A DNA stretch of 52,626 bases from Candidatus Gottesmanbacteria bacterium (GCA_963714095.1 OY970230.1:334114-386739), one strand, 5' to 3'; shown: positions 767 to 45,875, counted from the stretch's first letter. Translations and numbers: made by a program. Notes: generated by a model from the letters alone, not told the origin.

Positions 767-2830
767 TTACATTCCCAGTTTCTCATGAATCCCCTGCAGA
801 GCTTTGAGCCCCAGTGCCAGAAACTCATCAATGGATAATCCGATCTGTTCACATTCCAGAATAATTTCTCTCCTGCAGTTTGCAGCAAATTTTTTAGTGT
901 TAAATTTCTTTTTTAATGATTCCGGTTTAAGGCTCAGTAATTTTTTATCCGGCTGGATGAGAGCCGAGGCGATAATTAATCCTGTTAATGTTTCTGCCGC
1001 GGCAAGCGCATGCTGCACGCGACCCTGACGCAATTTTCCTTTCAATGACTCAATTTGCCCAAATCCGTGAGATTGTATAGTTTCAACAAGATAATCACTC
1101 GCGCCGTTTTTCTTCAAAATTTCAACACATTTGATACAGTGTTTTTTGGTATCGGTTTTCGTTAATTCCCAATCAATATCGTGCAAAAGACCGATAATCC
1201 CCCATTCTTCCTCATTTTCACCAAAACGCTTCGCGAGCGCGCGCATAATCGCTTCTGATTCTTTACAATGCATGCGGGTTACGGGGTCTTTAATATATTC
1301 CTCCAATACGTTATTCGCTTTCCCGTAGGTAATTCCCAAGGACTGATGGCCTTCCAGCTTTTCTGATTTTACCGTAACGTTTTCCGGTTTAAGTGTCGGG
1401 AATAAAATAACGTCTTTGATATTCGGCTGGTCCGTAAGTATCGCAACAAGGCGGTCAATTCCCATTCCCCATCCTGCGGTCGGAGGCATGCCGTACTCAA
1501 GCGCCCTAATATAATCCTCATCAAATGCCTCGTGTTCGCTTTGTCCCTGTATCCCGAGCTTTTCGGACTCATGCCAACGTTTTGCCTGATCTTCCGGATC
1601 ATTCAGTTCGTTATAGGCATTAATAATTTCCTTACCGGCAACCAAAAGCTGGAACGATGCGGTTTTAGTAGGATCGGCAGGAAGCCGCTTGGCGAGCGCC
1701 ACAAATGCGGTCGGCCGGTCGGTTACATACAGGGGACCAAGTAATTGCGGACGCGCTGTTGCCTTATACAGCGTATCCAAAAGCGCTCCGTACCCGACAG
1801 CACCGGTCAAATCAAGTGTAATTTTTTTCGCTTTAATTTCCGCCAGTAATTTTTTCTCATCATTGGCTTTATTAATGTCTACGCCAGAATATTCCAATAC
1901 GACGTCACGGTACCGTACCCGCGGCCAGGGCGGCGTAAAATTCAGTTCCGTTCCCTGATAGGTAAATTTATATGATCCTTTAAGCTCTTTTACGAGACTG
2001 GCTATCATCGTCTCCGTATATTTCATAAGGTCATCATAATTGGCGTATGCCCAATAAAACTCCAGCATCGTAAACTCGGGATTGTGCTGCCGGTCTATGC
2101 CTTCGTTGCGGAAATCGCGTCCTATTTCATAGACACGGTCAAATCCGCCGACGATGAGCCGCTTGAGGTACAATTCATCGGAAATCCGAAGATACAAATC
2201 AACATCCAGCGCGTTATGGTGTGTGACAAAGGGTTTCGCCTGCGCACCGCCGTAAATAGGCTGCAATACCGGTGTATCCACTTCGATAAATCCGTCTCCG
2301 TCCAAAAACGCGCGCAAAAACGTGACGACTTTGCTCCGCGTGAGAAAAATATCGCGTACATCGGGGTTCACTGCCAAATCCACATACCGCTGACGGTAGC
2401 GCTCCTCAATATCCTTGAGCCCGCTCCACTCACTTGGCAAGGGCCGGACGGCTTTGGAAATGATCTGAAAATTTTTTGCGAAGACCGAACGTTCACCTGC
2501 CTGAGTATTTCCTACCTCCCCCTGTACGGCGAGAAAATCCCCGAGATCCATGCAGGTAGTCAGTGCAAACGCTTTTGCGCTGCACACATCGGACTTGAGT
2601 ACTACCTGAATTTTGCCGGTCCCGTCAATAAGATCCAAAAAGAAAATCTTCCCGTGTCCGCGCACTCCCATCACCCGACCCGCGACTGCCGCGTCTTTCC
2701 CGGTTAACCCGCGCGCTTTGGCAATGGTATATTTTCGTGTTATTGTGCCGGGGTACGGATCCACGCCGGCACCCCGAAGTTTCGCAAGCTTGGTTAACCG
2801 CATCTTCTTAAGATAATCGATAGTGGCCAT
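767..2830 (-). CDS. lysS: class II lysyl-tRNA synthetase fused to a C-terminal HD-type phosphohydrolase domain
   Basis: 687 aa. The first ~480 aa carry the OB-fold and class II core (RVMGVRGHGKIFFLDL, EIGRDFRNEGID, GWGMGIDRLV). The last ~205 aa carry an HD module (RMHCKESEAIMRALA, GLLHDIDWE, TGLIIASALIQPDKK). Confidence 0.9.
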   Translation of the reverse strand: MATIDYLKKMRLTKLAKLRGAGVDPYPGTITRKYTIAKARGLTGKDAAVAGRVMGVRGHGKIFFLDLIDGTGKIQVVLKSDVCSAKAFALTTCMDLGDFLAVQGEVGNTQAGERSVFAKNFQIISKAVRPLPSEWSGLKDIEERYRQRYVDLAVNPDVRDIFLTRSKVVTFLRAFLDGDGFIEVDTPVLQPIYGGAQAKPFVTHHNALDVDLYLRISDELYLKRLIVGGFDRVYEIGRDFRNEGIDRQHNPEFTMLEFYWAYANYDDLMKYTETMIASLVKELKGSYKFTYQGTELNFTPPWPRVRYRDVVLEYSGVDINKANDEKKLLAEIKAKKITLDLTGAVGYGALLDTLYKATARPQLLGPLYVTDRPTAFVALAKRLPADPTKTASFQLLVAGKEIINAYNELNDPEDQAKRWHESEKLGIQGQSEHEAFDEDYIRALEYGMPPTAGWGMGIDRLVAILTDQPNIKDVILFPTLKPENVTVKSEKLEGHQSLGITYGKANNVLEEYIKDPVTRMHCKESEAIMRALAKRFGENEEEWGIIGLLHDIDWELTKTDTKKHCIKCVEILKKNGASDYLVETIQSHGFGQIESLKGKLRQGRVQHALAAAETLTGLIIASALIQPDKKLLSLKPESLKKKFNTKKFAANCRREIILECEQIGLSIDEFLALGLKALQGIHEKLGM

Positions 2831-2836
2831 GGTTCT

Positions 2837-2865
2837 ATTATCCTATATTGACCGCATTCATTCAA
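2837..2865 (-). promoter_or_regulatory. sigma70-like promoter giving a leaderless lysS mRNA (TTGAAT-17-GATAAT-6-ATG)
   Basis: Minus-strand read: TTGAAT (2865..2860), 17-nt spacer, GATAAT (2842..2837), then 6 nt to the ATG at 2830. There is no SD. Confidence 0.45.
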
Positions 2866-3867
2866 TTATCCTAAAAATCCACTGACAAATGTTCGGGCGA
2901 TATCCCCGATAGTCCCGACGTTATACCCGCCTTCCTGAATCAAAACGGTCGGAATATTACATTTAGATATAAGAGAGGCAATCCGCCGAAAATAGTTAGT
3001 TGAAAGCTTTAATCTTCCAATCGGATCCGATTCGTGTGCATCAAATCCGACCGAAACAACCAAATAATTTGGGGCAAACTCATAAATTCGGGTCAACGCA
3101 GCAGACAACACAATGTCATACACCCTGTCTTTTGTGCCAAGCGGCACCGGTAAATTGACGGTATACCCGATTCCTACCCCACGACCACATTCTTCTTCCC
3201 TCCCTGTAAAATATGGAAACAGCTCATCAGGATTCCCGTGGATACTCACGAAAAGTACGTCGCGGCGGGAATAAAAAATCTCCTGTGTACCATTCCCGTG
3301 ATGTACATCTATATCCAAAATCGCCACCTTCCCTCTGGTGCTTAAATAATTCGCAGCAATCGCGGCGTTATTAAAATAACAATATCCGCCCATGCGTCCC
3401 CGCAGCGCATGGTGCCCCGGCGGCCGACACAGTGCATACGCCACCCGCTCACCGCGCCGGACCAATGAGGCAGCAGTAAGTGCTGCCATTGCCGAACCGC
3501 GGGCGGCTTCATAGGTGGTACTTGAAACCGGCGTGTACATATCAAAACTATATTGTCCGCGAAGACCCACGTCCTGCTTCGTGTATTGATCTGCAGCATA
3601 CGGGAAAACCGACGGGTACACATAGTGATTCCCTGCCCGTCTTCCCGCTTCGGCAAGATAATTAATATACGAAATGTCATGGACCTGATCAATCCACGAA
3701 CGGGGAAACCGGCGGGGAAGGACAACTTTTATCCCGTTCAATTGCTCCAGAGATGCCTTTATGCATTCTATCCTTTCCGGTACTTCCGCATGCGCATCGC
3801 GATCCCCGTTCACAATTTCATTCGGCGGCCGGTGCCTGACATGATAGGAGGGGTAAACAACAATCAT
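2866..3867 (-). CDS. histone deacetylase-family (arginase/deacetylase superfamily) amidohydrolase, AcuC/acetylpolyamine-type
   Basis: 333 aa. Contains RPPGHHA, CYFNNAAIAA and DIDVHHGNGTQEIFY, the classical HDAC zinc and active-site motifs. Confidence 0.85.
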   Translation of the reverse strand: MIVVYPSYHVRHRPPNEIVNGDRDAHAEVPERIECIKASLEQLNGIKVVLPRRFPRSWIDQVHDISYINYLAEAGRRAGNHYVYPSVFPYAADQYTKQDVGLRGQYSFDMYTPVSSTTYEAARGSAMAALTAASLVRRGERVAYALCRPPGHHALRGRMGGYCYFNNAAIAANYLSTRGKVAILDIDVHHGNGTQEIFYSRRDVLFVSIHGNPDELFPYFTGREEECGRGVGIGYTVNLPVPLGTKDRVYDIVLSAALTRIYEFAPNYLVVSVGFDAHESDPIGRLKLSTNYFRRIASLISKCNIPTVLIQEGGYNVGTIGDIARTFVSGFLG

Positions 3868-37927: not shown

Positions 37928-37961
37928 TACTCAGGAATTCCTCAGAATATTCCCGTATACT
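37928..37961 (+). promoter_or_regulatory. promoter with 7-4-7 direct repeats (TACTCAG-gaat-TCCTCAG), 10 nt, then TATACT
   Basis: CTCAG cores at 37930 and 37941 (11-bp phasing). The -10 TATACT is at 37956..37961. SD GGAGG precedes the ATG at 37983. Confidence 0.45.
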
Positions 37962-37982: not shown

Positions 37983-38435
37983 ATGAAGTTTATGAAAAAT
38001 AATATTGCGTTAATAGCTATTCTTGCAGTAATAGTTGGCGGCGCCGCAGGATTCTTCGGCGGTGTGCAATACCAGAAGAGTCAACGTCCGTCGTTCGGAC
38101 AATTTGCAGGTGCAGGAGGTGGATTTGGTACACGGGGAGGAAGCGGTGCAACCGGAGCACGAAGAGGCGGAAACGGAGCAGCCGGAACAATTCTCAGTGT
38201 CGATGCCAATTCAATGACCGTAAAACTCAATGACGGCAGTTCAAAAATCGTTGTGCTGACAGGAACGACATCCATTAATAAAGCGGCGGCGGCAGCGGTG
38301 AGTGATCTCTCTGTTGGTGAAACTGTTTCTGCATTTGGTACGACTAATTCCGATGGCAGCATTACGGCAACTAATATACAGATTAATCCCATGATGCGGG
38401 GTCCGGGTGGTCCAAGCGCGACACCTACTCCTTAA
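37983..38435 (+). CDS. Gly-rich secreted/anchored protein, DUF5666-like
   Basis: 150 aa. Signal anchor, Gly-rich linker, and the beta-rich module SMTVKLNDGSSKIVVLTGTTSI...VGETVSAFGTTNSDGSITATNIQI. Confidence 0.65.
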   Translation: MKFMKNNIALIAILAVIVGGAAGFFGGVQYQKSQRPSFGQFAGAGGGFGTRGGSGATGARRGGNGAAGTILSVDANSMTVKLNDGSSKIVVLTGTTSINKAAAAAVSDLSVGETVSAFGTTNSDGSITATNIQINPMMRGPGGPSATPTP

Positions 38436-38449
38436 GCATGTTCTCAGAC

Positions 38450-38467
38450 AGAAAGCGTACGCTTTCT
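38450..38467 (+). terminator. perfect 18-nt palindrome downstream of the 37983 gene (possible terminator stem)
   Basis: AGAAAGCGTACGCTTTCT. The downstream T-tract is weak (cttttagg). Confidence 0.3.
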
Positions 38468-38520
38468 AGACATTCATAAACTTTTAGGTAGCTGGAAAGG
38501 ACACTTGAAAAGCCTATGAG

Positions 38521-38580
38521 TTGGTTGACAGTTAGATGTTTCAACCAAAGATGGCCCCGCCGAGATGGCGGGGTTGTCGT
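38521..38580. terminator. two hairpins in the convergent intergenic region (possible bidirectional terminator)
   Basis: TTGGTTGA-12 nt-TCAACCAA (38521..38548) and CCCCGCC-gagat-GGCGGGG (38555..38573), followed by ttgtcgtattt on the plus strand. Confidence 0.4.
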
Positions 38581-38582
38581 AT

Positions 38583-39272
38583 TTACTGAGCTGTCATTTT
38601 TTTAAACCACTCATGCGCAACAAGTGAGGGTGCGCCGGTTTCGATGGCTTGAAGAATTAATTTTGCAATGTGCTCCGGCGGGTCGGGCGGCGGAAGATTG
38701 CCTCCTCCACCCCAATCAACGGAAATTTCTTTTCCTTTGATCGTATTTTTTTCGAAATTTGTATCCGTGCTATACGGGAAAATGACGGAAACGCTGATAT
38801 GATCTTTTTTTAATTCTTCATTGGCGGTGAGCGATAATCCTGCAAGTGCCCTCTTTAGCGATGAATAGCCGCCCATATTCGGCAAAGCCATAAGAGCCGT
38901 ACCGCTACTGATATTTACGATCGCCCCCCCGCCCTGTTTCCGCATAAAAGGAATAACCTGCTGCATCGCCAGAAGCGGGCCGACGACATCCAGCGTAAAA
39001 ATTTCCTGTAATGTTTTAATGTCCGTATACTCTATAGCTGCATCGTATCCTTGGCCGGCATTATTCACTAAAATATCAATCCGACCGTAATGCTCTATTG
39101 TATATTTCACCATTTTTTCTATATCCCGGGGTTTAGTCATGTCAGCAACAACAGAACCATGACGTGATACGCCTACGACAATTGCTCCTTTTATTGTGAG
39201 TAAACTCGCTGTTGCTTTTCCGATACCAGACGAAGCTCCTGTGACGATCGCTACTTTCCCTTTACAATTCAT
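38583..39272 (-). CDS. short-chain dehydrogenase/reductase (SDR) family oxidoreductase
   Basis: 229 aa. VAIVTGASSGIGKA cofactor motif, NNAG, and a Y..SK catalytic motif (YSSLK). Confidence 0.9.
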   Translation of the reverse strand: MNCKGKVAIVTGASSGIGKATASLLTIKGAIVVGVSRHGSVVADMTKPRDIEKMVKYTIEHYGRIDILVNNAGQGYDAAIEYTDIKTLQEIFTLDVVGPLLAMQQVIPFMRKQGGGAIVNISSGTALMALPNMGGYSSLKRALAGLSLTANEELKKDHISVSVIFPYSTDTNFEKNTIKGKEISVDWGGGGNLPPPDPPEHIAKLILQAIETGAPSLVAHEWFKKMTAQ

Positions 39273-39714
39273 ATTGTTTTATATCCCGTATAATTTCCCC
39301 CGCATGAATTGTCGGATTTACGTTGTTATACACTTTTTTGATATCACCATCGGGATTAATGACATAGGTTTTTCGCAATGTCCCCTCAAACTGCTTTCCT
39401 AAGAACTTTTTTACTCCGCACGCATCATACTCTTGAATCGTTTTCTTCGATGCATCGCTGAGTATCGGAAAATTCAGGTGATATTTTTCGGCAAACTTTT
39501 TATGAGAGGCAACGGAATCTTTTGAAATACCCAGTATGATGACACCGAGAGTCTGAAGCTCGTGGAATGAATCGCGAAACTTGCATGCCTCTATCGTACA
39601 CCCCGGTGTGTCATCTTTAGGATAAAAATACAGGACGACCCAACTCCCCCGGTACTGTTTGAGCGTATGCATGGCATTATTTTGATCCGGCAATGTAAAA
39701 TCTTCCGCTTTCAT
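39262..39714 (-). CDS. bcp: peroxiredoxin Bcp (thiol peroxidase, AhpC/TSA family)
   Basis: Start at MKAEDFTLPDQ (ATG 39714). Contains VVLYFYPKDDTPGCTIEAC (CxxxxC). Confidence 0.9.
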   Translation of the reverse strand: MKAEDFTLPDQNNAMHTLKQYRGSWVVLYFYPKDDTPGCTIEACKFRDSFHELQTLGVIILGISKDSVASHKKFAEKYHLNFPILSDASKKTIQEYDACGVKKFLGKQFEGTLRKTYVINPDGDIKKVYNNVNPTIHAGEIIRDIKQYEL

Positions 39715-39758
39715 AGATGATATACTGGTATTATACAGCACGTGTACAGGAGGAATTT

Positions 39759-39792
39759 TTCTCAGCAAATATTCAGCAAAAATAGATAAAGT
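39759..39792 (+). promoter_or_regulatory. promoter with 7-4-7 direct repeats (TTCTCAG-caaa-TATTCAG), 10 nt, then TAAAGT
   Basis: Repeats at 39759..39765 and 39770..39776. The -10-like TAAAGT at 39787..39792 lies 9 nt before the ATG at 39802. Confidence 0.4.
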
Positions 39793-39801
39793 AGCTTCAA
39801 C

Positions 39802-40245
39802 ATGAAGAAATTCTTACTTTCCGCTTTTGTGGTCATTACATTCGCGGGATATGCCCTCCAACAGCGCTTTGGAAGTGAAGGAGTACCGGTCGGAACAAAT
39901 TCTATCACCCTTGTAGATACTCCGACACCGGCAACCGCACAGGGGTCCTCAACTCCGACAGGAAACTATCGCGACGGCCAATATACCGGTACTGTTGTAG
40001 ATGCGTATTACGGAAACGTGCAGGTAAAAGCAATAATAACAGGCGGGAAAATATCCGACGTACAATTTTTGCAGTATCCCAGTGACCGACAAACGTCACG
40101 GATGATTAATTCCCAAGCTATGCCGTACCTCACTCAGGAAGCCATACAGACACAGAGCGCAAATGTGAACGGAGTTTCAGGCGCCACGGCAACAAGCCGT
40201 GCATTTATCCAGTCCCTCACGGCCGCGTTAACCCAGGCAAAGTGA
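39802..40245 (+). CDS. FMN-binding domain protein (NqrC/RnfG-like, flavinylation substrate) with signal anchor
   Basis: 147 aa. N-terminal MKKFLLSAFVVITFAGYAL. FMN_bind domain with the flavinylation motif NGVSGATATS. Confidence 0.85.
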   Translation: MKKFLLSAFVVITFAGYALQQRFGSEGVPVGTNSITLVDTPTPATAQGSSTPTGNYRDGQYTGTVVDAYYGNVQVKAIITGGKISDVQFLQYPSDRQTSRMINSQAMPYLTQEAIQTQSANVNGVSGATATSRAFIQSLTAALTQAK

Positions 40246-40248
40246 TAT

Positions 40249-40983
40249 ATGAGACAGACGCAGCTCATCATGGACATGCCGGTCATCGTAGAAATTCCAG
40301 GACCGTCGAAACCGGAAATTTTCAAGGAGGTATTTGATTATTTCCGTTATGTCGATAACACGTTCAGCACATTTAAAGAAACAAGTGAAATAACAAAAAT
40401 AAATAACGGACTATTTGCTGCATCAAATTACAGCAATGATATGAAGGAAATTTTTCGCCTAGCGGAGCAAACAAAGAAAGAAACAGACGGATATTTTGAT
40501 ATACGGCGGGACAGCTACAGAGACCCCTCAGGTATCGTCAAAGGCTGGGCAATTCACCACGCCGCCTCTCTGCTTCGTACAGCCGGGTACAACAATTATT
40601 ATGTGGAGGCCGGCGGCGATATAGAGGTCGCAGGCAATAACCCTGACGGTGAAACGTGGACTATCGGTATCCGCAACCCGTTTAACGTGAATGAAATAGT
40701 AAAAAAAGTTACACTTCGTGACCGCGGCATTGCAACGAGCGGAACCTATGAACGAGGGAAACATATTTATAATCCGAAAACGAATACGCCGGTTTCGGAA
40801 ATTGTGAGCCTTACCGTCATCGGACCTGATGTATGCGAGGCAGACCGCTTTGCAACCGCCGCCTTCGCCATGGGAAGTAAAGGAATTCAGTTTATCGAAC
40901 GTCTCAATAAATTTGAAGGATATATGATAGATACAAAGGGGATCGCGACATTTACGGGCGGATTCCATACATATGTCGTATGA
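40249..40983 (+). CDS. apbE: FAD:protein FMN transferase (ApbE family), short form without signal peptide
   Basis: 244 aa. Contains DPSGIVKGWA, EAGGDI, WTIGIRNP, ATSGTYERG, HIYNP and EADRFATAAF. Confidence 0.85.
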   Translation: MRQTQLIMDMPVIVEIPGPSKPEIFKEVFDYFRYVDNTFSTFKETSEITKINNGLFAASNYSNDMKEIFRLAEQTKKETDGYFDIRRDSYRDPSGIVKGWAIHHAASLLRTAGYNNYYVEAGGDIEVAGNNPDGETWTIGIRNPFNVNEIVKKVTLRDRGIATSGTYERGKHIYNPKTNTPVSEIVSLTVIGPDVCEADRFATAAFAMGSKGIQFIERLNKFEGYMIDTKGIATFTGGFHTYVV

Positions 40984-42500
40984 AAAAAGCTCTCGATGAT
41001 TTTTTAAATTCTACCACAATGTACAGACTGCTTCTGTATTATCTTACCGTTCTTGTTCTTGTTGCGGCAGTATTTTCTCTGTTCGGGTTCCTATCATTTT
41101 CGTTTTTACCGTTCGTCATATCCGTTTTTTTCCTATTAGCCATATCATTACTTGTCAACGAAGTGTTTGCAAACGTTTTTGGTGCACAGACAAATGTGGA
41201 ATCCGTCTATATATCAGCACTTATTCTTGCCCTTATTATTTCCCCTGCAAAAAATCTTCAAGACCTCATATTTCTGGGCTGGGCAGCGACACTTACCAGT
41301 GCCTCAAAATATATTCTCGCCATAGGCAAACGACATATCTTTAACCCCGTCGCTATCGCAGCAGTTCTGACCGCTTTCGTATTAGGAGATTCGGCGACGT
41401 GGTGGGTAGGAACACTTCCGATGCTGCCGATTGTTCTGGCAGGCGGAGTATTACTCGTAAAAAAAATCCAGCGGACTGATGTATTTTTCAGTTTCCTGGG
41501 AACCACGATCATCATCATTATGGCATTCGCCATATACAACGGGACGTTTACGTTGTCGATATTCCGGCAAATATTCATCGATTCACCGATAATCTTTTTC
41601 GCCTGTGTCATGCTTACTGAACCTCTCACAACACCGCCGACTTCCCGCCTGAGGATCTGGTACGGCATACTTATCGGAATATTCTTTGCCCCACAAATCC
41701 ATATCGGCGCCCTTTACAGTACTCCGGAATTAGCACTCGTCATAGGAAACATATTCTCCTATATCGTCAGCCCGAAGGAAAAATTATTGTTGACACTGAA
41801 AGAAAAAATTCCCATCGGGCAAAACCAATATGATTACTTATTCACCGCTGACAAACGATTTTCATTTAGCCCGGGCCAATATATGGAATGGACACTTGCC
41901 CATCCGCATCCGGACGACCGCGGGGTCCGAAGGTATTTTACCCTTTCTTCCTCCCCCACCGAACCGGCGGTCCGCGTAGGAATCCGATTCAACAATCCTC
42001 CGAGCTCATTTAAAAAAACTTTGCTAGAAATGAACACGGGCAGTCAGATAATTGCTGGATACAGGAGCGGAGATTTTGTCCTGCCCCGTGATCCGGCACA
42101 AAAACTGGTGTTCATTGCCGGCGGCATCGGGATCACGCCTTTCCGGAGCATCATCAAATATCTTATCGATACCGGAGAGAGGCGAAATATTATACTTATC
42201 TACTCGAATAAAACGGCGCAGGAAATCTGTTACCGCGATGTATTTGATGAAGCTCAAAAACGGATCGGAACGAAAACGCTGTATACACTCACCGACCGAG
42301 AGCACGTTCCTGCCGGTTGGACCGGACACGTGGGCAGAATTGACGGGTCCGCCGTCGAATCAGAAATACCGGATTATGGAGAACGGCTTTTTTATATATC
42401 CGGTCCGAATTCATTGGTACAGGGATTCAAAAATACCCTTAAGAGCATGGGTGTACAGGAAGGCAGTATAAAAACCGACTTTTTCCCCGGATTCGCGTAA
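40980..42500 (+). CDS. fusion of an NqrB/RnfD-like polytopic membrane domain with a C-terminal FNR-type FAD/NAD(P)-binding reductase
   Basis: 506 aa. About 8 TM helices with KRHIFNPVAIAAV (the RnfD/NqrB FNPA-type motif). Then RRYFTLSS (RxYS/T FAD motif), GGIGITP and ISGP. ATGA overlap with apbE. Confidence 0.8.
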   Translation: MKKALDDFLNSTTMYRLLLYYLTVLVLVAAVFSLFGFLSFSFLPFVISVFFLLAISLLVNEVFANVFGAQTNVESVYISALILALIISPAKNLQDLIFLGWAATLTSASKYILAIGKRHIFNPVAIAAVLTAFVLGDSATWWVGTLPMLPIVLAGGVLLVKKIQRTDVFFSFLGTTIIIIMAFAIYNGTFTLSIFRQIFIDSPIIFFACVMLTEPLTTPPTSRLRIWYGILIGIFFAPQIHIGALYSTPELALVIGNIFSYIVSPKEKLLLTLKEKIPIGQNQYDYLFTADKRFSFSPGQYMEWTLAHPHPDDRGVRRYFTLSSSPTEPAVRVGIRFNNPPSSFKKTLLEMNTGSQIIAGYRSGDFVLPRDPAQKLVFIAGGIGITPFRSIIKYLIDTGERRNIILIYSNKTAQEICYRDVFDEAQKRIGTKTLYTLTDREHVPAGWTGHVGRIDGSAVESEIPDYGERLFYISGPNSLVQGFKNTLKSMGVQEGSIKTDFFPGFA

Positions 42501-42518
42501 GCGCATTAGGAGAGCGTA

Positions 42519-42552
42519 TTCTCAGGATATTCTCAGTCCATTCTGCTAGACT
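42519..42552 (+). promoter_or_regulatory. promoter with 7-4-7 direct repeats (TTCTCAG-gata-TTCTCAG), 10 nt, then TAGACT; leaderless response-regulator gene
   Basis: Repeats at 42519..42525 and 42530..42536. TAGACT at 42547..42552, then 6 nt to the ATG at 42559. Confidence 0.5.
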
Positions 42553-42558
42553 ACAGCT

Positions 42559-43239
42559 ATGCGTATATTAATCGTCGAAGACGAACATAAAATCGCAAAC
42601 TCCATTAAAAAAGGCCTGGAACAGGAATCCTACGCCGCCGACGTTTGCTATACCGGTACGGACGGATTTGACCTTGCCACTACCGAAGACTACGATGTTA
42701 TCGTTCTTGACCTGCTCCTCCCCGGTATGGACGGGGTCACCGTCTGTAAAAAACTCCGCGCGGATAAAATCCATACGCCAATTCTCATGCTCACGGCCAA
42801 AGGACAAACCGGCGATAAAGTTGAGGGGTTGGATGCGGGTGCAGACGATTATCTCACCAAGCCTTTTGCATTTGAAGAACTCTTAGCACGTATCCGGGCC
42901 CTCATGCGGCGACCACGAAACGCTACTGGAACGACTTTAAAAGTCGAGGATTTGACACTCGATACGTTAGTGTATGAAGTCAGACGCGCAGGCATAATCA
43001 TCCAACTCTCGAGCCGTGAATTTGCACTTTTGGAATATCTTATGAGACACCCGAACACGACGGTCACCAAAGACCAGATCATCGGCCATGTATGGAATTA
43101 CGATGCCGACATATTACCCAATACGGTTGAGGTGTATGTCGGATACCTGCGGAATAAAATTGACAAGCCATTCCATGGGAAACCCATGCTTATCCATACG
43201 ATCCGCGGATTCGGGTATAAAATAGGGAAAAAGGAGTGA
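42559..43239 (+). CDS. OmpR/PhoB-family response regulator
   Basis: 226 aa. Receiver domain (ILIVEDE, DVIVLDLLLPGMDG, LTAK) plus a winged-helix trans_reg_C domain (LSSREFALLEYLM, RGFGYK). Confidence 0.95.
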   Translation: MRILIVEDEHKIANSIKKGLEQESYAADVCYTGTDGFDLATTEDYDVIVLDLLLPGMDGVTVCKKLRADKIHTPILMLTAKGQTGDKVEGLDAGADDYLTKPFAFEELLARIRALMRRPRNATGTTLKVEDLTLDTLVYEVRRAGIIIQLSSREFALLEYLMRHPNTTVTKDQIIGHVWNYDADILPNTVEVYVGYLRNKIDKPFHGKPMLIHTIRGFGYKIGKKE

Positions 43240-43240
43240 T

Positions 43241-44278
43241 ATGTTTCATTCAGCTCGGATTAAATTAACGGCATGGTATCTGCTGATCATTATGACGATC
43301 AGCATTTCTTTTAGCGTCGCGATCTATCGTGTCCTCACATCCGAATTGGACAGGTTGGAGAGAGCGGAACAGTCGCGTGTTGCACGCCGTCTCCCTGAAT
43401 TCCAGATCAATCAGACGGCCCCGGGCGTACCAGATGTTATATTGGATCCGGATCTTCTTGCGGAAACGAAAAACCGCGTCGAAATTATTTTGATTTTTAT
43501 TAATCTCTTTATTCTCGGAGGATCTGCATTTGCCGGATATATGCTTGCGGGCAGAACTCTCAATCCTATCGCTGAGATGGTTGATGAACAAAACCGGTTT
43601 ATTACCGATGCATCCCATGAACTGCGCACACCGCTGACATCCCTTAAATCAGAAATCGAAGTAAACCTGCGGGATCCGAATTTATCACTGGAACAGACAA
43701 AAACCCTCCTCAAAAGCAATTTAGAAGAGGTTAACTCTCTCCAGGTATTATCCGACGGCCTCATCAGACTCACACAATATCAGCAGGGACACAACACATT
43801 ACCATTTACAACTGTTCAACTTGCCCCTATCGCGAAAGAGGCAATCCGTAAAGTAACGAACGCCGCCAAAGAAAAAAAGATCACGATCACCAATGATATA
43901 CACAGCAGTACCGTACAGGGAAATCAAACCGCTCTTACCGAACTGCTTGTTATCTTTCTGGATAACGCAATAAAATACAGCCCGAAACAAAAAACTGTTC
44001 ATATTATGAGCAAAAAAACCGACGGCCATATACTCATTGAAATTGCTGACCGCGGGTTTGGCATAGACGAAAAAGATATTCCGCATCTGTTTGACCGCTT
44101 TTACCGGGCAGACAAATCGAGAACGAAAACCGGTGTGGCGGGTTATGGATTAGGGCTTTCCATTGCAAAACAAATCGTTGATCAACATGACGGATCTATC
44201 CGTGTTCAGAGTCAGCTCAAAAAAGGTACAACGTTTACGATAGAACTACCTATCAAACACTCTGAAAATTTTGTATAA
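43241..44278 (+). CDS. sensor histidine kinase (2 TM helices, HisKA plus HATPase_c)
   Basis: 345 aa. H-box SHELRTPLTSL, N-box LDNAIKYS, and G-boxes DRGFGI and GYGLGLSIA. Confidence 0.9.
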   Translation: MFHSARIKLTAWYLLIIMTISISFSVAIYRVLTSELDRLERAEQSRVARRLPEFQINQTAPGVPDVILDPDLLAETKNRVEIILIFINLFILGGSAFAGYMLAGRTLNPIAEMVDEQNRFITDASHELRTPLTSLKSEIEVNLRDPNLSLEQTKTLLKSNLEEVNSLQVLSDGLIRLTQYQQGHNTLPFTTVQLAPIAKEAIRKVTNAAKEKKITITNDIHSSTVQGNQTALTELLVIFLDNAIKYSPKQKTVHIMSKKTDGHILIEIADRGFGIDEKDIPHLFDRFYRADKSRTKTGVAGYGLGLSIAKQIVDQHDGSIRVQSQLKKGTTFTIELPIKHSENFV

Positions 44279-44287
44279 TCATACAGA

Positions 44288-45199
44288 ATGAAAAAATCTA
44301 TATTTCGTAATAAGCTCCTCTATATCATCCCAATCGTCTATATTTTGGCGATAAGCGTCTACATGATATGGCACCGGGCATGGCTCTCACCTGATCAGTT
44401 TTTCGCATTCGCCATTATCGCGACGCTGGTCATCGGGAAAATTAAGCAATTTCTCCAGGATTGGGTTCCGGTACTGCTTCTACTTTTCAGTTATGAATAC
44501 CTGCGCGGCGTTATCCCGATGCTTGCCATGAAGCCGCATATTTTCCCGATGATTCACGCAGACACATTTTTGTTCGGCTATATACCGACAATCAAACTGC
44601 AAAGCGCACTCTTTCACTCCGGTGTCAATCATTGGTACGATTATGTTGCCGTCACGCTCTATATTTCCCATTTTGTCGTTCCCATGATGGTTGCGTTTCT
44701 CTTTTGGTTATTTGACCGAAAACATTTCAAATCCTTCACAACGGCATTTCTTATTCTTTCCTATCTTGCATTTTTTACCTACATCATTTTCCCTGCTATG
44801 CCGCCATGGATGGCAAGCAGTCAGGGATATCTGCCGCCGCTGGATAAAATTATGGATCAGGTGTTGGGTTCATTTGCCCATCCGATCAGTGTTCCGTCAA
44901 TTTATCAATTCTTCGGAGCTGATCTGGTCGCTGCCATGCCGTCACTTCATGCAGCGTATCCGTGGCTTATATTTCTTTTTGTCTTTAAAAAATTCCGTTA
45001 CTGGGCACTTCTCATTCTTCCCTATGTCTTCGGCGTGTGGTTTGCTGTTGTATACCTTGGAGAACACTACGCAATTGATGTTATATTTGGCATATTGTAT
45101 GCCAGTGTTGTATTTTTAGCCGTTTCGTATTTTGAAAAAAAACGGTCAAAGAAACTCGCTGTTACAGAACCAGTGTATGCCCAAAAAAATACGGAATAA
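44288..45199 (+). CDS. PAP2-superfamily membrane protein (AUR1/IPC-synthase-like PAP2_3)
   Basis: 303 aa, polytopic. Contains MPSLHAAYP and GEHYAIDVIFG. TATAAT lies 8 nt before the ATG. Confidence 0.8.
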   Translation: MKKSIFRNKLLYIIPIVYILAISVYMIWHRAWLSPDQFFAFAIIATLVIGKIKQFLQDWVPVLLLLFSYEYLRGVIPMLAMKPHIFPMIHADTFLFGYIPTIKLQSALFHSGVNHWYDYVAVTLYISHFVVPMMVAFLFWLFDRKHFKSFTTAFLILSYLAFFTYIIFPAMPPWMASSQGYLPPLDKIMDQVLGSFAHPISVPSIYQFFGADLVAAMPSLHAAYPWLIFLFVFKKFRYWALLILPYVFGVWFAVVYLGEHYAIDVIFGILYASVVFLAVSYFEKKRSKKLAVTEPVYAQKNTE

Positions 45200-45875
45200 T
45201 CCAACCGTCCGCAAAATACTTCTCTCTATTGCCATCCTTATCGGCGTAGCAATAGTGGTCTACCTTATTATTCAGGGGCGGCATTATTTTAACCGCCGGG
45301 GTATCCGGCAAATGCAGACCGTCATTAATTCGTACGGATCATTGTCACCGTTTGCTCTCATATTTCTTATCGTCATAAGTACCGTCATTCCACCGCTTCC
45401 CCTCCCCATCCCGCTTATCGAAATGGCGGCAGGACTCATATTCGGATTCGGTGAAGGATTTCTCCTGGTGTGGGTATCACAAATTATCGGATCGGTTGCC
45501 GCGTTTGTCATGACGCGAATAGTAGGCAAAAGCATATTCCGCCGTATGTTAGAAAATAAAATCTTTAATTTTTACCGACGATATATCCATGATAAAGGTC
45601 CGCTGGCAATATTCACGATCCGGGCAACGATGGCTTCACCGTTTAACGTGGTAAGTTTTCTTGCAGGTCTCACGCAAATGAAAATCCTTAATTTTACCAT
45701 CGCAACAATCCTTGGCACCATCCCCGAATCGTTATTGTTCTCTTATGTCGGCAGTCTGTTACAGAGCACGCGTTTACGGCTGTGGTATATATTTATTTTG
45801 ACTGTGCTTCTGGGGGCCATCGGGCCGATCTTTATGTATCTGGAGTCGAAATACCTGACGAACGAAAAACGCTAG
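45177..45875 (+). CDS. TVP38/TMEM64 (DedA-superfamily) membrane protein
   Basis: Start at ATG 45177 (MPKKIRNNP). Contains PPLPLPIPLIEMAAGLIFG and SQIIGSVAAFVMTRIVGK. Confidence 0.85.
   Translation: MPKKIRNNPTVRKILLSIAILIGVAIVVYLIIQGRHYFNRRGIRQMQTVINSYGSLSPFALIFLIVISTVIPPLPLPIPLIEMAAGLIFGFGEGFLLVWVSQIIGSVAAFVMTRIVGKSIFRRMLENKIFNFYRRYIHDKGPLAIFTIRATMASPFNVVSFLAGLTQMKILNFTIATILGTIPESLLFSYVGSLLQSTRLRLWYIFILTVLLGAIGPIFMYLESKYLTNEKR

Follow-up and report, generated by a model that had tools for sequence, protein, structure and literature searches.

A probable NQR/RNF-like flavinylation module of a Gottesmanbacteria genome pairs a leaderless ApbE with a predicted exported substrate

In a 52,626-nucleotide stretch of DNA from Candidatus Gottesmanbacteria bacterium (GCA_963714095.1 OY970230.1:334114-386739; hereafter the window, with positions counted from its first letter), three adjoining genes at 39,802 to 42,500 encode a protein with an FMN_bind domain (FMN, flavin mononucleotide), the flavin transferase ApbE, and a fusion of an RnfD/NqrB-like membrane domain to an FNR-type reductase. 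We conclude with good, if not complete, confidence that this locus is a Patescibacteria member of the published NQR/RNF-like flavinylation-associated system, with the electron-export mechanism proposed for it. The only part of the module not already explained is its leaderless ApbE, which lacks any export signal beside a substrate predicted to be exported. New relative to the published class are the family-wide occurrence of this leaderless ApbE, two subtypes in which ApbE and the substrate motif co-vary, and a two-component link through a shared operator. The principal features are as follows.

39802-40245, + strand: FMN_bind gene, 147 residues
40249-40983, + strand: ApbE gene, 244 residues
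40980-42500, + strand: RnfD/NqrB-like and FNR fusion gene, 506 residues, the range including the stop codon
40980-41780, + strand: RnfD/NqrB-like polytopic membrane domain, residues 1-267 of the fusion (Pfam, profile, AlphaFold2 (AF2)/Foldseek)
41781-42500, + strand: FNR-type FAD/NAD(P)H reductase domain (FAD, flavin adenine dinucleotide), residues 268-506 of the fusion (PF00175, NCBIfam, PDB, Foldseek)

The three genes and the NQR/RNF-like class

The FMN_bind and ApbE genes are joined by TGA, TAT (a 3-nt gap) and ATG, and the ApbE and fusion genes by an ATGA overlap. The original prediction, made from the sequence alone, had described this arrangement together with the motifs SGAT, KRHIFNP, RRYFTLSS and GGIGITP; both were found as described, and Pfam matched PF04205, PF02424, PF03116 and NAD_binding_1 PF00175, as it had anticipated.

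NQR/RNF-like systems were defined by Méheust et al. (2021, eLife) as flavinylation-associated clusters in which a PF03116-PF00175 protein is encoded; 127 such clusters were reported, mainly from Actinobacteria and the candidate phyla radiation (CPR), in a survey that filtered on predicted signal peptides and described the CPR as "strikingly underrepresented" (PMC8238504). In the window, PF03116 and PF00175 fall within one open reading frame (ORF), and the PF04205 and PF02424 genes, one or both of which the definition looks for within five genes, stand directly upstream of it. Locus and class share an FMN_bind protein with a predicted membrane anchor, apbE, and a protein in which PF03116 is N-terminal and PF00175 C-terminal, with no structural difference between them, and the CPR is one of the two groups in which the class was first found. 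For such a two-subunit pair from Ktedonobacter racemifer, Huang et al. (2024, mSystems) presented an AlphaFold-Multimer model in which the FMN_bind subunit is closely docked on the membrane subunit at its extracytosolic face; they noted that the NqrB/RnfD flavinylation site is missing from the membrane subunit, and the covalent flavin of the outer subunit was suggested to sample a non-covalent flavin site within it (PMC11334425). The architecture that the original prediction had offered as novel is already a named (PMC8238504) and modelled (PMC11334425) class, whereas its statement that this architecture has no experimental characterization agrees with our literature search.

The 506-residue fusion is real and not a sequencing artefact, as the lengths of its homologues and its predicted structure agree in showing. 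It has 7730 homologues, the best 120 of which are all about 485-520 residues long with at least 53% identity, and a profile of the membrane domain alone returned, at E <= 1e-30, 641 clusters formed at 50% identity; among the best 150 of these, the majority have the length of the fused form, about 480-515 residues. An AF2 model of the full-length protein built from 112 sequences has a pLDDT of 93.3 and a pTM of 0.88.

The membrane domain has approximately 10 helices and carries the motifs KRHIFNP and TEPLTTPPT. Its NQR2_RnfD_RnfE (PF03116) match at residues 148-261 scores 30.2 bits against a cut-off of 27.7, and the sole solved structure matched by a 20-sequence profile of residues 1-275 was RnfD of Azotobacter vinelandii (8ahx_D, E = 1.6e-5). 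When the domain was modelled alone (pLDDT 83.6), the top 15 Foldseek hits were all RnfD/NqrB chains with TM-scores of 0.47-0.72, followed by urea transporters at E > 0.2; a Foldseek search with the full-length model returned FNR-type structures only among its top 50. The assignment of this domain to the NqrB/RnfD type in the original prediction is borne out by these results. In the profile alignment to 8ahx_D, TEPLTxPPT pairs with TDPVTSP, WWVG with RnfD residues 95-99, and query residues 152-251 with RnfD residues 222-321, leaving RnfD residues ~100-221 with no counterpart in the fusion. We take the FMN-bearing threonine of RnfD to lie in this missing segment, having placed it from the Vibrio cholerae numbering rather than located it in 8ahx_D. 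With its position so placed, and judging from the alignment, the membrane domain lacks both the covalent-FMN loop and the flavinylated threonine of RnfD/NqrB, and no [ST]GA[ST] motif occurs anywhere in the 506-residue protein. A cryptic flavinylation site was considered at D-S-A-T (residues 137-140; xSA[ST]WW in the family) and rejected, as it has no motif glycine and pairs with WAPWW in RnfD. This D-S-A-T lies at a helix turn that, judging from loop charges, would face outward, and even if it were used, a cytoplasmic ApbE would be left unexplained.

The C-terminal half of the fusion is a generic, intact FNR module. It matches NAD_binding_1 (PF00175, E = 5e-15, residues 378-482) and contains RRYFTLSS (317-324), GGIGITP (381-387) and YISGP; the first two, which correspond to the RxY[ST] and GGxGxxP signatures of the FNR family, are invariant or nearly so in 112 homologues. 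The domain also has sequence hits in the PDB, and in Foldseek it superposes on FNR and on the FAD domains of NqrF with target-normalised TM-scores up to 0.84. The comparison with the reductase part of NqrF made in the original prediction holds in that the module resembles its FAD/NADH part, and fails in that the best NCBIfam match over residues ~286-502 is of the flavohaemoprotein type (E = 1.8e-24, compared with 8.6e-12 for nqrF, the PaaE module being matched too) and that the fusion has no NqrF-type 2Fe-2S domain.

Compared with Na+-NQR and Rnf, the module shares the RnfD/NqrB fold of the membrane domain, a single N-terminal helix anchor as in NqrC/RnfG, and this FNR module. Those complexes have six subunits (NqrA-F or RnfABCDGE), whereas the module here has only two, its fusion carrying neither a 2Fe-2S domain nor a covalent-FMN site in the RnfD-like domain. 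A Pfam domain scan of the neighbourhood (10 genes, 37983-45875) detected no NqrA, RnfB, RnfC or NqrF-type ferredoxin domain, NqrD/E and RnfA/E, which have PF03116 in common with NqrB/RnfD, not having been tested separately. Electron flow in Na+-NQR and Rnf is semicircular, whereas here it is presumed to run one way outward, with no sign of ion pumping, and the ApbE is leaderless rather than a lipoprotein.

By homology, NAD(P)H would reduce the FAD of the cytoplasmic FNR domain, electrons would cross the membrane through a flavin held in the trimmed RnfD/NqrB-like domain, which lacks a covalent-FMN loop of its own, and they would then reach the FMN attached by ApbE to Thr129 of the outward-facing, anchored FMN_bind protein. 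This flavin could in turn reduce an extracellular acceptor, the candidates being ferric iron, free flavin or quinone, and O2, and the flow would be one-way in a cluster where the scan detected no other Nqr/Rnf subunits. An electron path of this kind is proposed for the class in both PMC8238504 and PMC11334425, such that the original reading of the trio as a conduit from NAD(P)H to an extracytoplasmic flavin, which our sequence analysis favours, coincides with a hypothesis already published for this architecture. If it is correct, fermentative bacteria that have no respiratory chain would gain a route for NAD(P)H re-oxidation or iron reduction. The locus adds one more Patescibacteria example to a class whose description dates from 2021 and whose model dates from 2024, and with three genes, its own regulator and near-leaderless transcripts it offers a compact test case for one of the two questions that the class poses, namely whether a two-subunit complex moves electrons from NAD(P)H to the outside.

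A leaderless ApbE and a predicted exported substrate

The 244-residue ApbE matches PF02424 with E = 2.8e-44. Its N-terminal residues, MRQTQLIMDMPVIVEI, make up the first beta-strand of the fold and not a signal peptide, its frame is shut one codon upstream of the ATG by the TGA of the preceding gene, and there is no hydrophobic N-terminus; the lipoprotein or secretion signal typical of bacterial ApbE is absent. The original prediction was correct on both the missing signal and the closed upstream frame. Aligned with E. coli ApbE (4xgw), query residues 27-85 correspond to chain residues 45-104 and query residues 88-232 to chain residues 159-313, and the protein therefore has an internal deletion of ~54 residues relative to the E. 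coli enzyme. It also aligns with V. cholerae ApbE (6nxi), and its alignment to the two enzymes includes the histidine of SH(I/V)xxP, here H172. Among 120 ApbE homologues, K98-G-W-A, G123-D124 (GGD), A162-T-S-G, H172 and D199/T203 (ADxxAT) are each kept in at least 97%. The score of 77 bits against an NCBIfam equivalog cut-off of 498 places the protein in a divergent, short subfamily, and stand-alone ApbE homologues of 235-260 residues number in the thousands.

To place this protein among its relatives, one genome per species was scanned, giving 433 relatives, of which 80 were kept; loci were compared over a set of 83 (82 fetched plus the window). The kept relatives span many Patescibacteria lineages, Chloroflexota (Ktedonospora, Dictyobacter, Anaerolineae), Mesorhizobium, Kaistia, Spirochaetota and Agreia, the nearest named homologues among them being from Daviesbacteria, Amesbacteria, Levyibacteriota and Woesebacteria. 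Of the 83 loci, 70 have an ApbE ORF, which in all but one lies on the same strand upstream of the fusion and in most directly abuts it, and the gene preceding ApbE encodes an FMN_bind protein in 37 of the 49 loci scanned; the complete trio is kept in the relatives L001 and L002.

ApbE is leaderless at all 70 of these loci, which represent five or more phyla and include the diderm Mesorhizobium and the actinobacterial Agreia, and the stop-to-stop frames of the loci examined contain no hydrophobic extension ahead of the start codon. Two types of N-terminus were seen, always M(K/R)xT(R/K)(I/L)(I/L)MGMP(I/V)TVE in ApbEs of about 245 residues and always F(E/x)A(I/L)GTxW in those of about 290. The shorter type pairs with an [ST]GA[ST] substrate motif (36:0) and the longer with [SA][GS]SS (12:1), in loci that are not phylogenetically independent; this co-variation of ApbE subtype and substrate motif argues that the local ApbE is the true modifier. 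We would argue from its sequence that the ApbE here is functional and dedicated to the adjoining FMN_bind substrate.

The FMN_bind domain (PF04205, E = 5.6e-9) occupies residues 69-143 of the 147-residue protein, with the predicted flavinylation motif VSGAT (S126-G-A-T129; threonine codon 40186-40188) lying 18 residues from the C-terminus, and [ST]GA[ST] is kept in relatives. The N-terminus consists of a signal anchor, MKKFLLSAFVVITFAGYAL, followed by a Pro/Thr/Ser-rich linker that leads into the domain. Two features of the anchor, the N-terminal Lys-Lys and the 17-residue hydrophobic segment, are kept in relatives, where the consensus is MKKxxLSxFVIxxFxxYA with the positive charges on the N-terminal side, Pro/Thr/Ser-rich linkers following; in nearly all FMN_bind homologues the C-terminal flank is neutral or acidic. 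The homologue from Agreia carries a lipoprotein lipobox, LLGVVTGC. The domain is predicted from these features to face outward on an N-in anchor. No twin-arginine motif was found in the FMN_bind partner or its relatives.

The closest solved relative of the FMN_bind protein is not NqrC or RnfG but a domain of a Streptomyces azureus multi-FMN protein (8p2a_A, E = 6e-12), and NCBIfam gave no match; of the NqrC/RnfG likeness claimed in the original prediction, the anchor and the SGAT motif stand, whereas the affinity by sequence does not. The S. azureus protein, SaFMN3, has an SGAT-type motif and carries FMN covalently on its threonine, but is a multi-FMN extracellular protein, whereas ours is a single-domain protein whose partner is a dedicated transmembrane donor dependent on NAD(P)H (8p2a; PMC10339131). 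The redox potential of SaFMN3 (-184 mV) and its reaction with O2 (PMC10339131) are a guide to the likely properties of the FMN_bind protein.

Any mismatch between the locations of enzyme and substrate would disappear if the FMN_bind domain instead faced the cytoplasm and the module served as an internal NAD(P)H-dependent reductase of, for example, a membrane quinone or another membrane acceptor. Against a quinone, Patescibacteria are generally not known to have any. An inward domain would be the simplest account of a leaderless ApbE, and the fumarate reductase of Klebsiella pneumoniae does pair a cytoplasmic ApbE with a cytoplasmic FMN_bind client (PMC12052999). That ApbE resembles ours in being signal-less and encoded beside its client, and differs in that the client is a soluble fumarate reductase of the cytoplasm, whereas the client here is predicted to be exported and membrane-anchored. 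The Lys-Lys on the N-terminal flank, the neutral or acidic C-terminal flank, the Pro/Thr/Ser stalks and the Agreia lipobox all speak against an inward orientation, as does the placement of the subunit on the extracytosolic face in the published AlphaFold-Multimer model (PMC11334425), and we regard this alternative as improbable.

With an outward domain, the leaderless ApbE found at all loci together with the conserved outward-type FMN_bind anchor makes the topological mismatch, on sequence grounds, a genuine and family-wide trait rather than a peculiarity of this genome. The original prediction had singled out this puzzle, and it proves to be real and conserved over 70 loci. Our literature searches on ApbE in Patescibacteria and on cytoplasmic ApbE gave no results, and the excerpts of PMC8238504 and PMC11334425 available to us do not discuss where the ApbE of this class resides. 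The clearest single example of the mismatch is Agreia pratensis (L077), where the FMN_bind gene that encodes the lipobox (2552-3142) lies beside a signal-less ApbE.

The explanation that we prefer, though tentatively, is that the FMN_bind protein receives FMN on its C-terminal motif while still on the cytoplasmic side, before its export, and that the flavinylated chain is then translocated. Since ApbE can modify terminal tags of 7 residues and is active in the cytosol in truncated form (PMC12052999), flavinylation of an unfolded precursor before export is chemically plausible. The same might possibly hold across the whole NQR/RNF-like family, a leaderless ApbE flavinylating the unfolded FMN_bind precursor in the cytoplasm ahead of Sec export; we offer this wider version as a conjecture.

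Several points weigh against this picture of the module. We infer the direction in which electrons flow, the flavin bound in the membrane and the acceptor, and the FMN_bind topology is based on the positive-inside rule, the composition of the linker, a single lipobox and the multimer model published for a homologue. The heterogeneous flanks of related loci hint only weakly at an acceptor, we found no experimental study of the class in the literature, and we know of no precedent for the flavinylation of a Sec substrate before its export. A cytosolic ApbE failed to complement in Salmonella, and the known cytoplasmic ApbEs, those of Klebsiella and of trypanosomatids, all have clients that are themselves cytoplasmic (PMC12052999).

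The Salmonella result also favours flavinylation on the outside, in which case the leaderless ApbE would leave the cell by an unrecognized route (non-classical secretion or piggy-backing), or a second, exported ApbE encoded elsewhere would act on the FMN_bind protein. Modification takes place outside for all characterized ApbE clients whose FMN_bind domains are extracytoplasmic (PMC12052999). The non-hydrophobic N-terminus, which at 70 of 70 loci starts with the fold's first strand, is difficult to reconcile with such an exit, and hitch-hiking would call for a twin-arginine motif, which is absent from the FMN_bind partner. A second ApbE is a poor fit with the way in which the local ApbE subtype tracks the motif of the neighbouring substrate. 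Mesorhizobium, being diderm, would be expected to encode a canonical periplasmic ApbE as well. On balance we consider flavinylation outside rather unlikely.

A further route by which ApbE could be carried outside is suggested by the gene junction itself. The FMN_bind and ApbE ORFs share one reading frame with only TGA-TAT between them (40243-40251), a point absent from the original prediction, and readthrough of the TGA at 40243-40245, or an error at that position, would yield a single exported FMN_bind-ApbE fusion. In L001 and L002, however, the two genes are out of frame with each other, and they share a frame in 13 of 47 relatives, close to the third that chance alone would give. TGA serves as a normal stop codon here, closing 13 of the 44 long ORFs in the window. 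The shared frame is taken, from the relatives, to be coincidence and not readthrough. Contigs from an environmental soil metagenome match the trio region without any difference, the junction included, although the run may be the source sample and is not independent for that reason, and the thousands of stand-alone ApbEs of 235-260 residues are likewise at odds with a fusion. We hold this alternative to be very improbable indeed.

Flavinylation followed by export, the account that we prefer, would spare bacteria with tiny genomes the export of FAD, and hence an FAD exporter, for their extracellular flavin wire. It would be the first case known to us of a covalent flavin carried across a membrane on a Sec substrate. 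How an exported flavoprotein receives covalent FMN from a transferase with no export signal is a question for the whole family.

Operator repeats and the adjacent two-component system

An 18-nt direct repeat, TNCTCAG-N4-TNYTCAG, lies upstream of the trio and recurs at two further sites, listed here with the neighbouring genes.

39759-39776, + strand: operator-like repeat TTCTCAG-N4-TATTCAG, upstream of the FMN_bind gene
42519-42536, + strand: operator copy TTCTCAG-N4-TTCTCAG, upstream of the response-regulator gene
37928-37945, + strand: operator copy TACTCAG-N4-TCCTCAG, upstream of the DUF5666 gene
42559-43239, + strand: OmpR/PhoB-family response regulator, 226 residues (Pfam Response_reg and Trans_reg_C)
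43241-44278, + strand: sensor histidine kinase, 345 residues (Pfam HisKA and HATPase_c)
37983-38435: DUF5666 gene (PF18914, E = 5.1e-7)

The pattern TNCTCAGNNNNTNYTCAG occurs 3 times in 52.6 kb compared with 0 expected, a count that is partly circular as the pattern was derived from the same sites. In all three copies exactly 10 nt separate the repeat from a TAnnnT hexamer downstream: at 39759 this is the -10-like TAAAGT (39787-39792), which ends 9 nt before the FMN_bind ATG; at 42519 it is TAGACT, 6 nt before the ATG of the response regulator; and at 37928 it is TATACT. With -10 hexamers 9 and 6 nt before their start codons, the FMN_bind operon and the response-regulator gene would give near-leaderless mRNAs. 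Two operator sites recur at the same places in L001 (2302 and 3465), and the order of genes around the response regulator is the same in close relatives.

A PhoB/OmpR-type activator site taking over the place of the -35 element has this layout, which supports control of the trio by the adjacent two-component system, as the original prediction had proposed and as the shared operator motif would suggest. The 226-residue response regulator is the likely regulator of the module, and the copy ahead of its own gene suggests that it autoregulates. The operon is probably switched on by this OmpR-type system through the 18-nt direct-repeat operator in place of a -35 element.

The DUF5666 protein, which would be co-regulated with the trio, is anchored N-terminally and includes a disordered, Gly-rich stretch that contains GGSGATG (SGAT at residues 54-57). 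Its candidacy as a second ApbE client was rejected: the L001 orthologue has GGSGAAG, in which the threonine is not kept, and the resemblance is probably due to chance.

Flanking genes and related loci

The genes around the trio within the region scanned with Pfam encode a peroxiredoxin, an SDR protein, the DUF5666 protein, the response regulator and histidine kinase, and PAP2 and VTT proteins, the first two being the Bcp and SDR neighbours noted in the original prediction. The Bcp/AhpC-TSA ORF (39262-39768, - strand, 168 residues) begins with TTG, whereas its orthologues are of 142-150 residues, and translation probably begins at the ATG at 39714 (MKAEDF...); this would leave a divergent intergenic region of 87 nt that contains the operator. 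With the stop of bcp overlapping the SDR gene's start, the two form a bcp-SDR operon divergent from the trio.

In public sequencing runs, the stretch 39700-42600 is present nearly whole in contigs of the soil-metagenome run (69% of sampled words), and short parts of it (10% of words) are found in a freshwater-sediment run from the same study; the public-run search returned no RNA runs that contain it.

Beyond the trio, the flanks of related loci are mixed, the flank tally of 124 including 9 histidine kinases, 4 response regulators, 3 Nramp, 3 VTT and 2 VIT1 proteins. The trio appears from this to behave as a self-contained module, the link to metal transport being a weak hint. Modules beside metal or iron transporters were seen with Nramp at 3 loci, with VIT1 at 2, and with FTR1 in L002 (7975-8738), with nothing similar in the window; they hint weakly that some members of the family may serve reductive metal uptake.

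The second subtype is represented by the loci L034, L035, L044, L047, L053, L062, L063, L072, L077, L078, L081 and L082. Their FMN_bind motif is [SA][GS]SS(L)T rather than SGAT, and their ApbE is divergent, with a length of ~290-330 residues and a start at FEAIGTxW, and is also leaderless.

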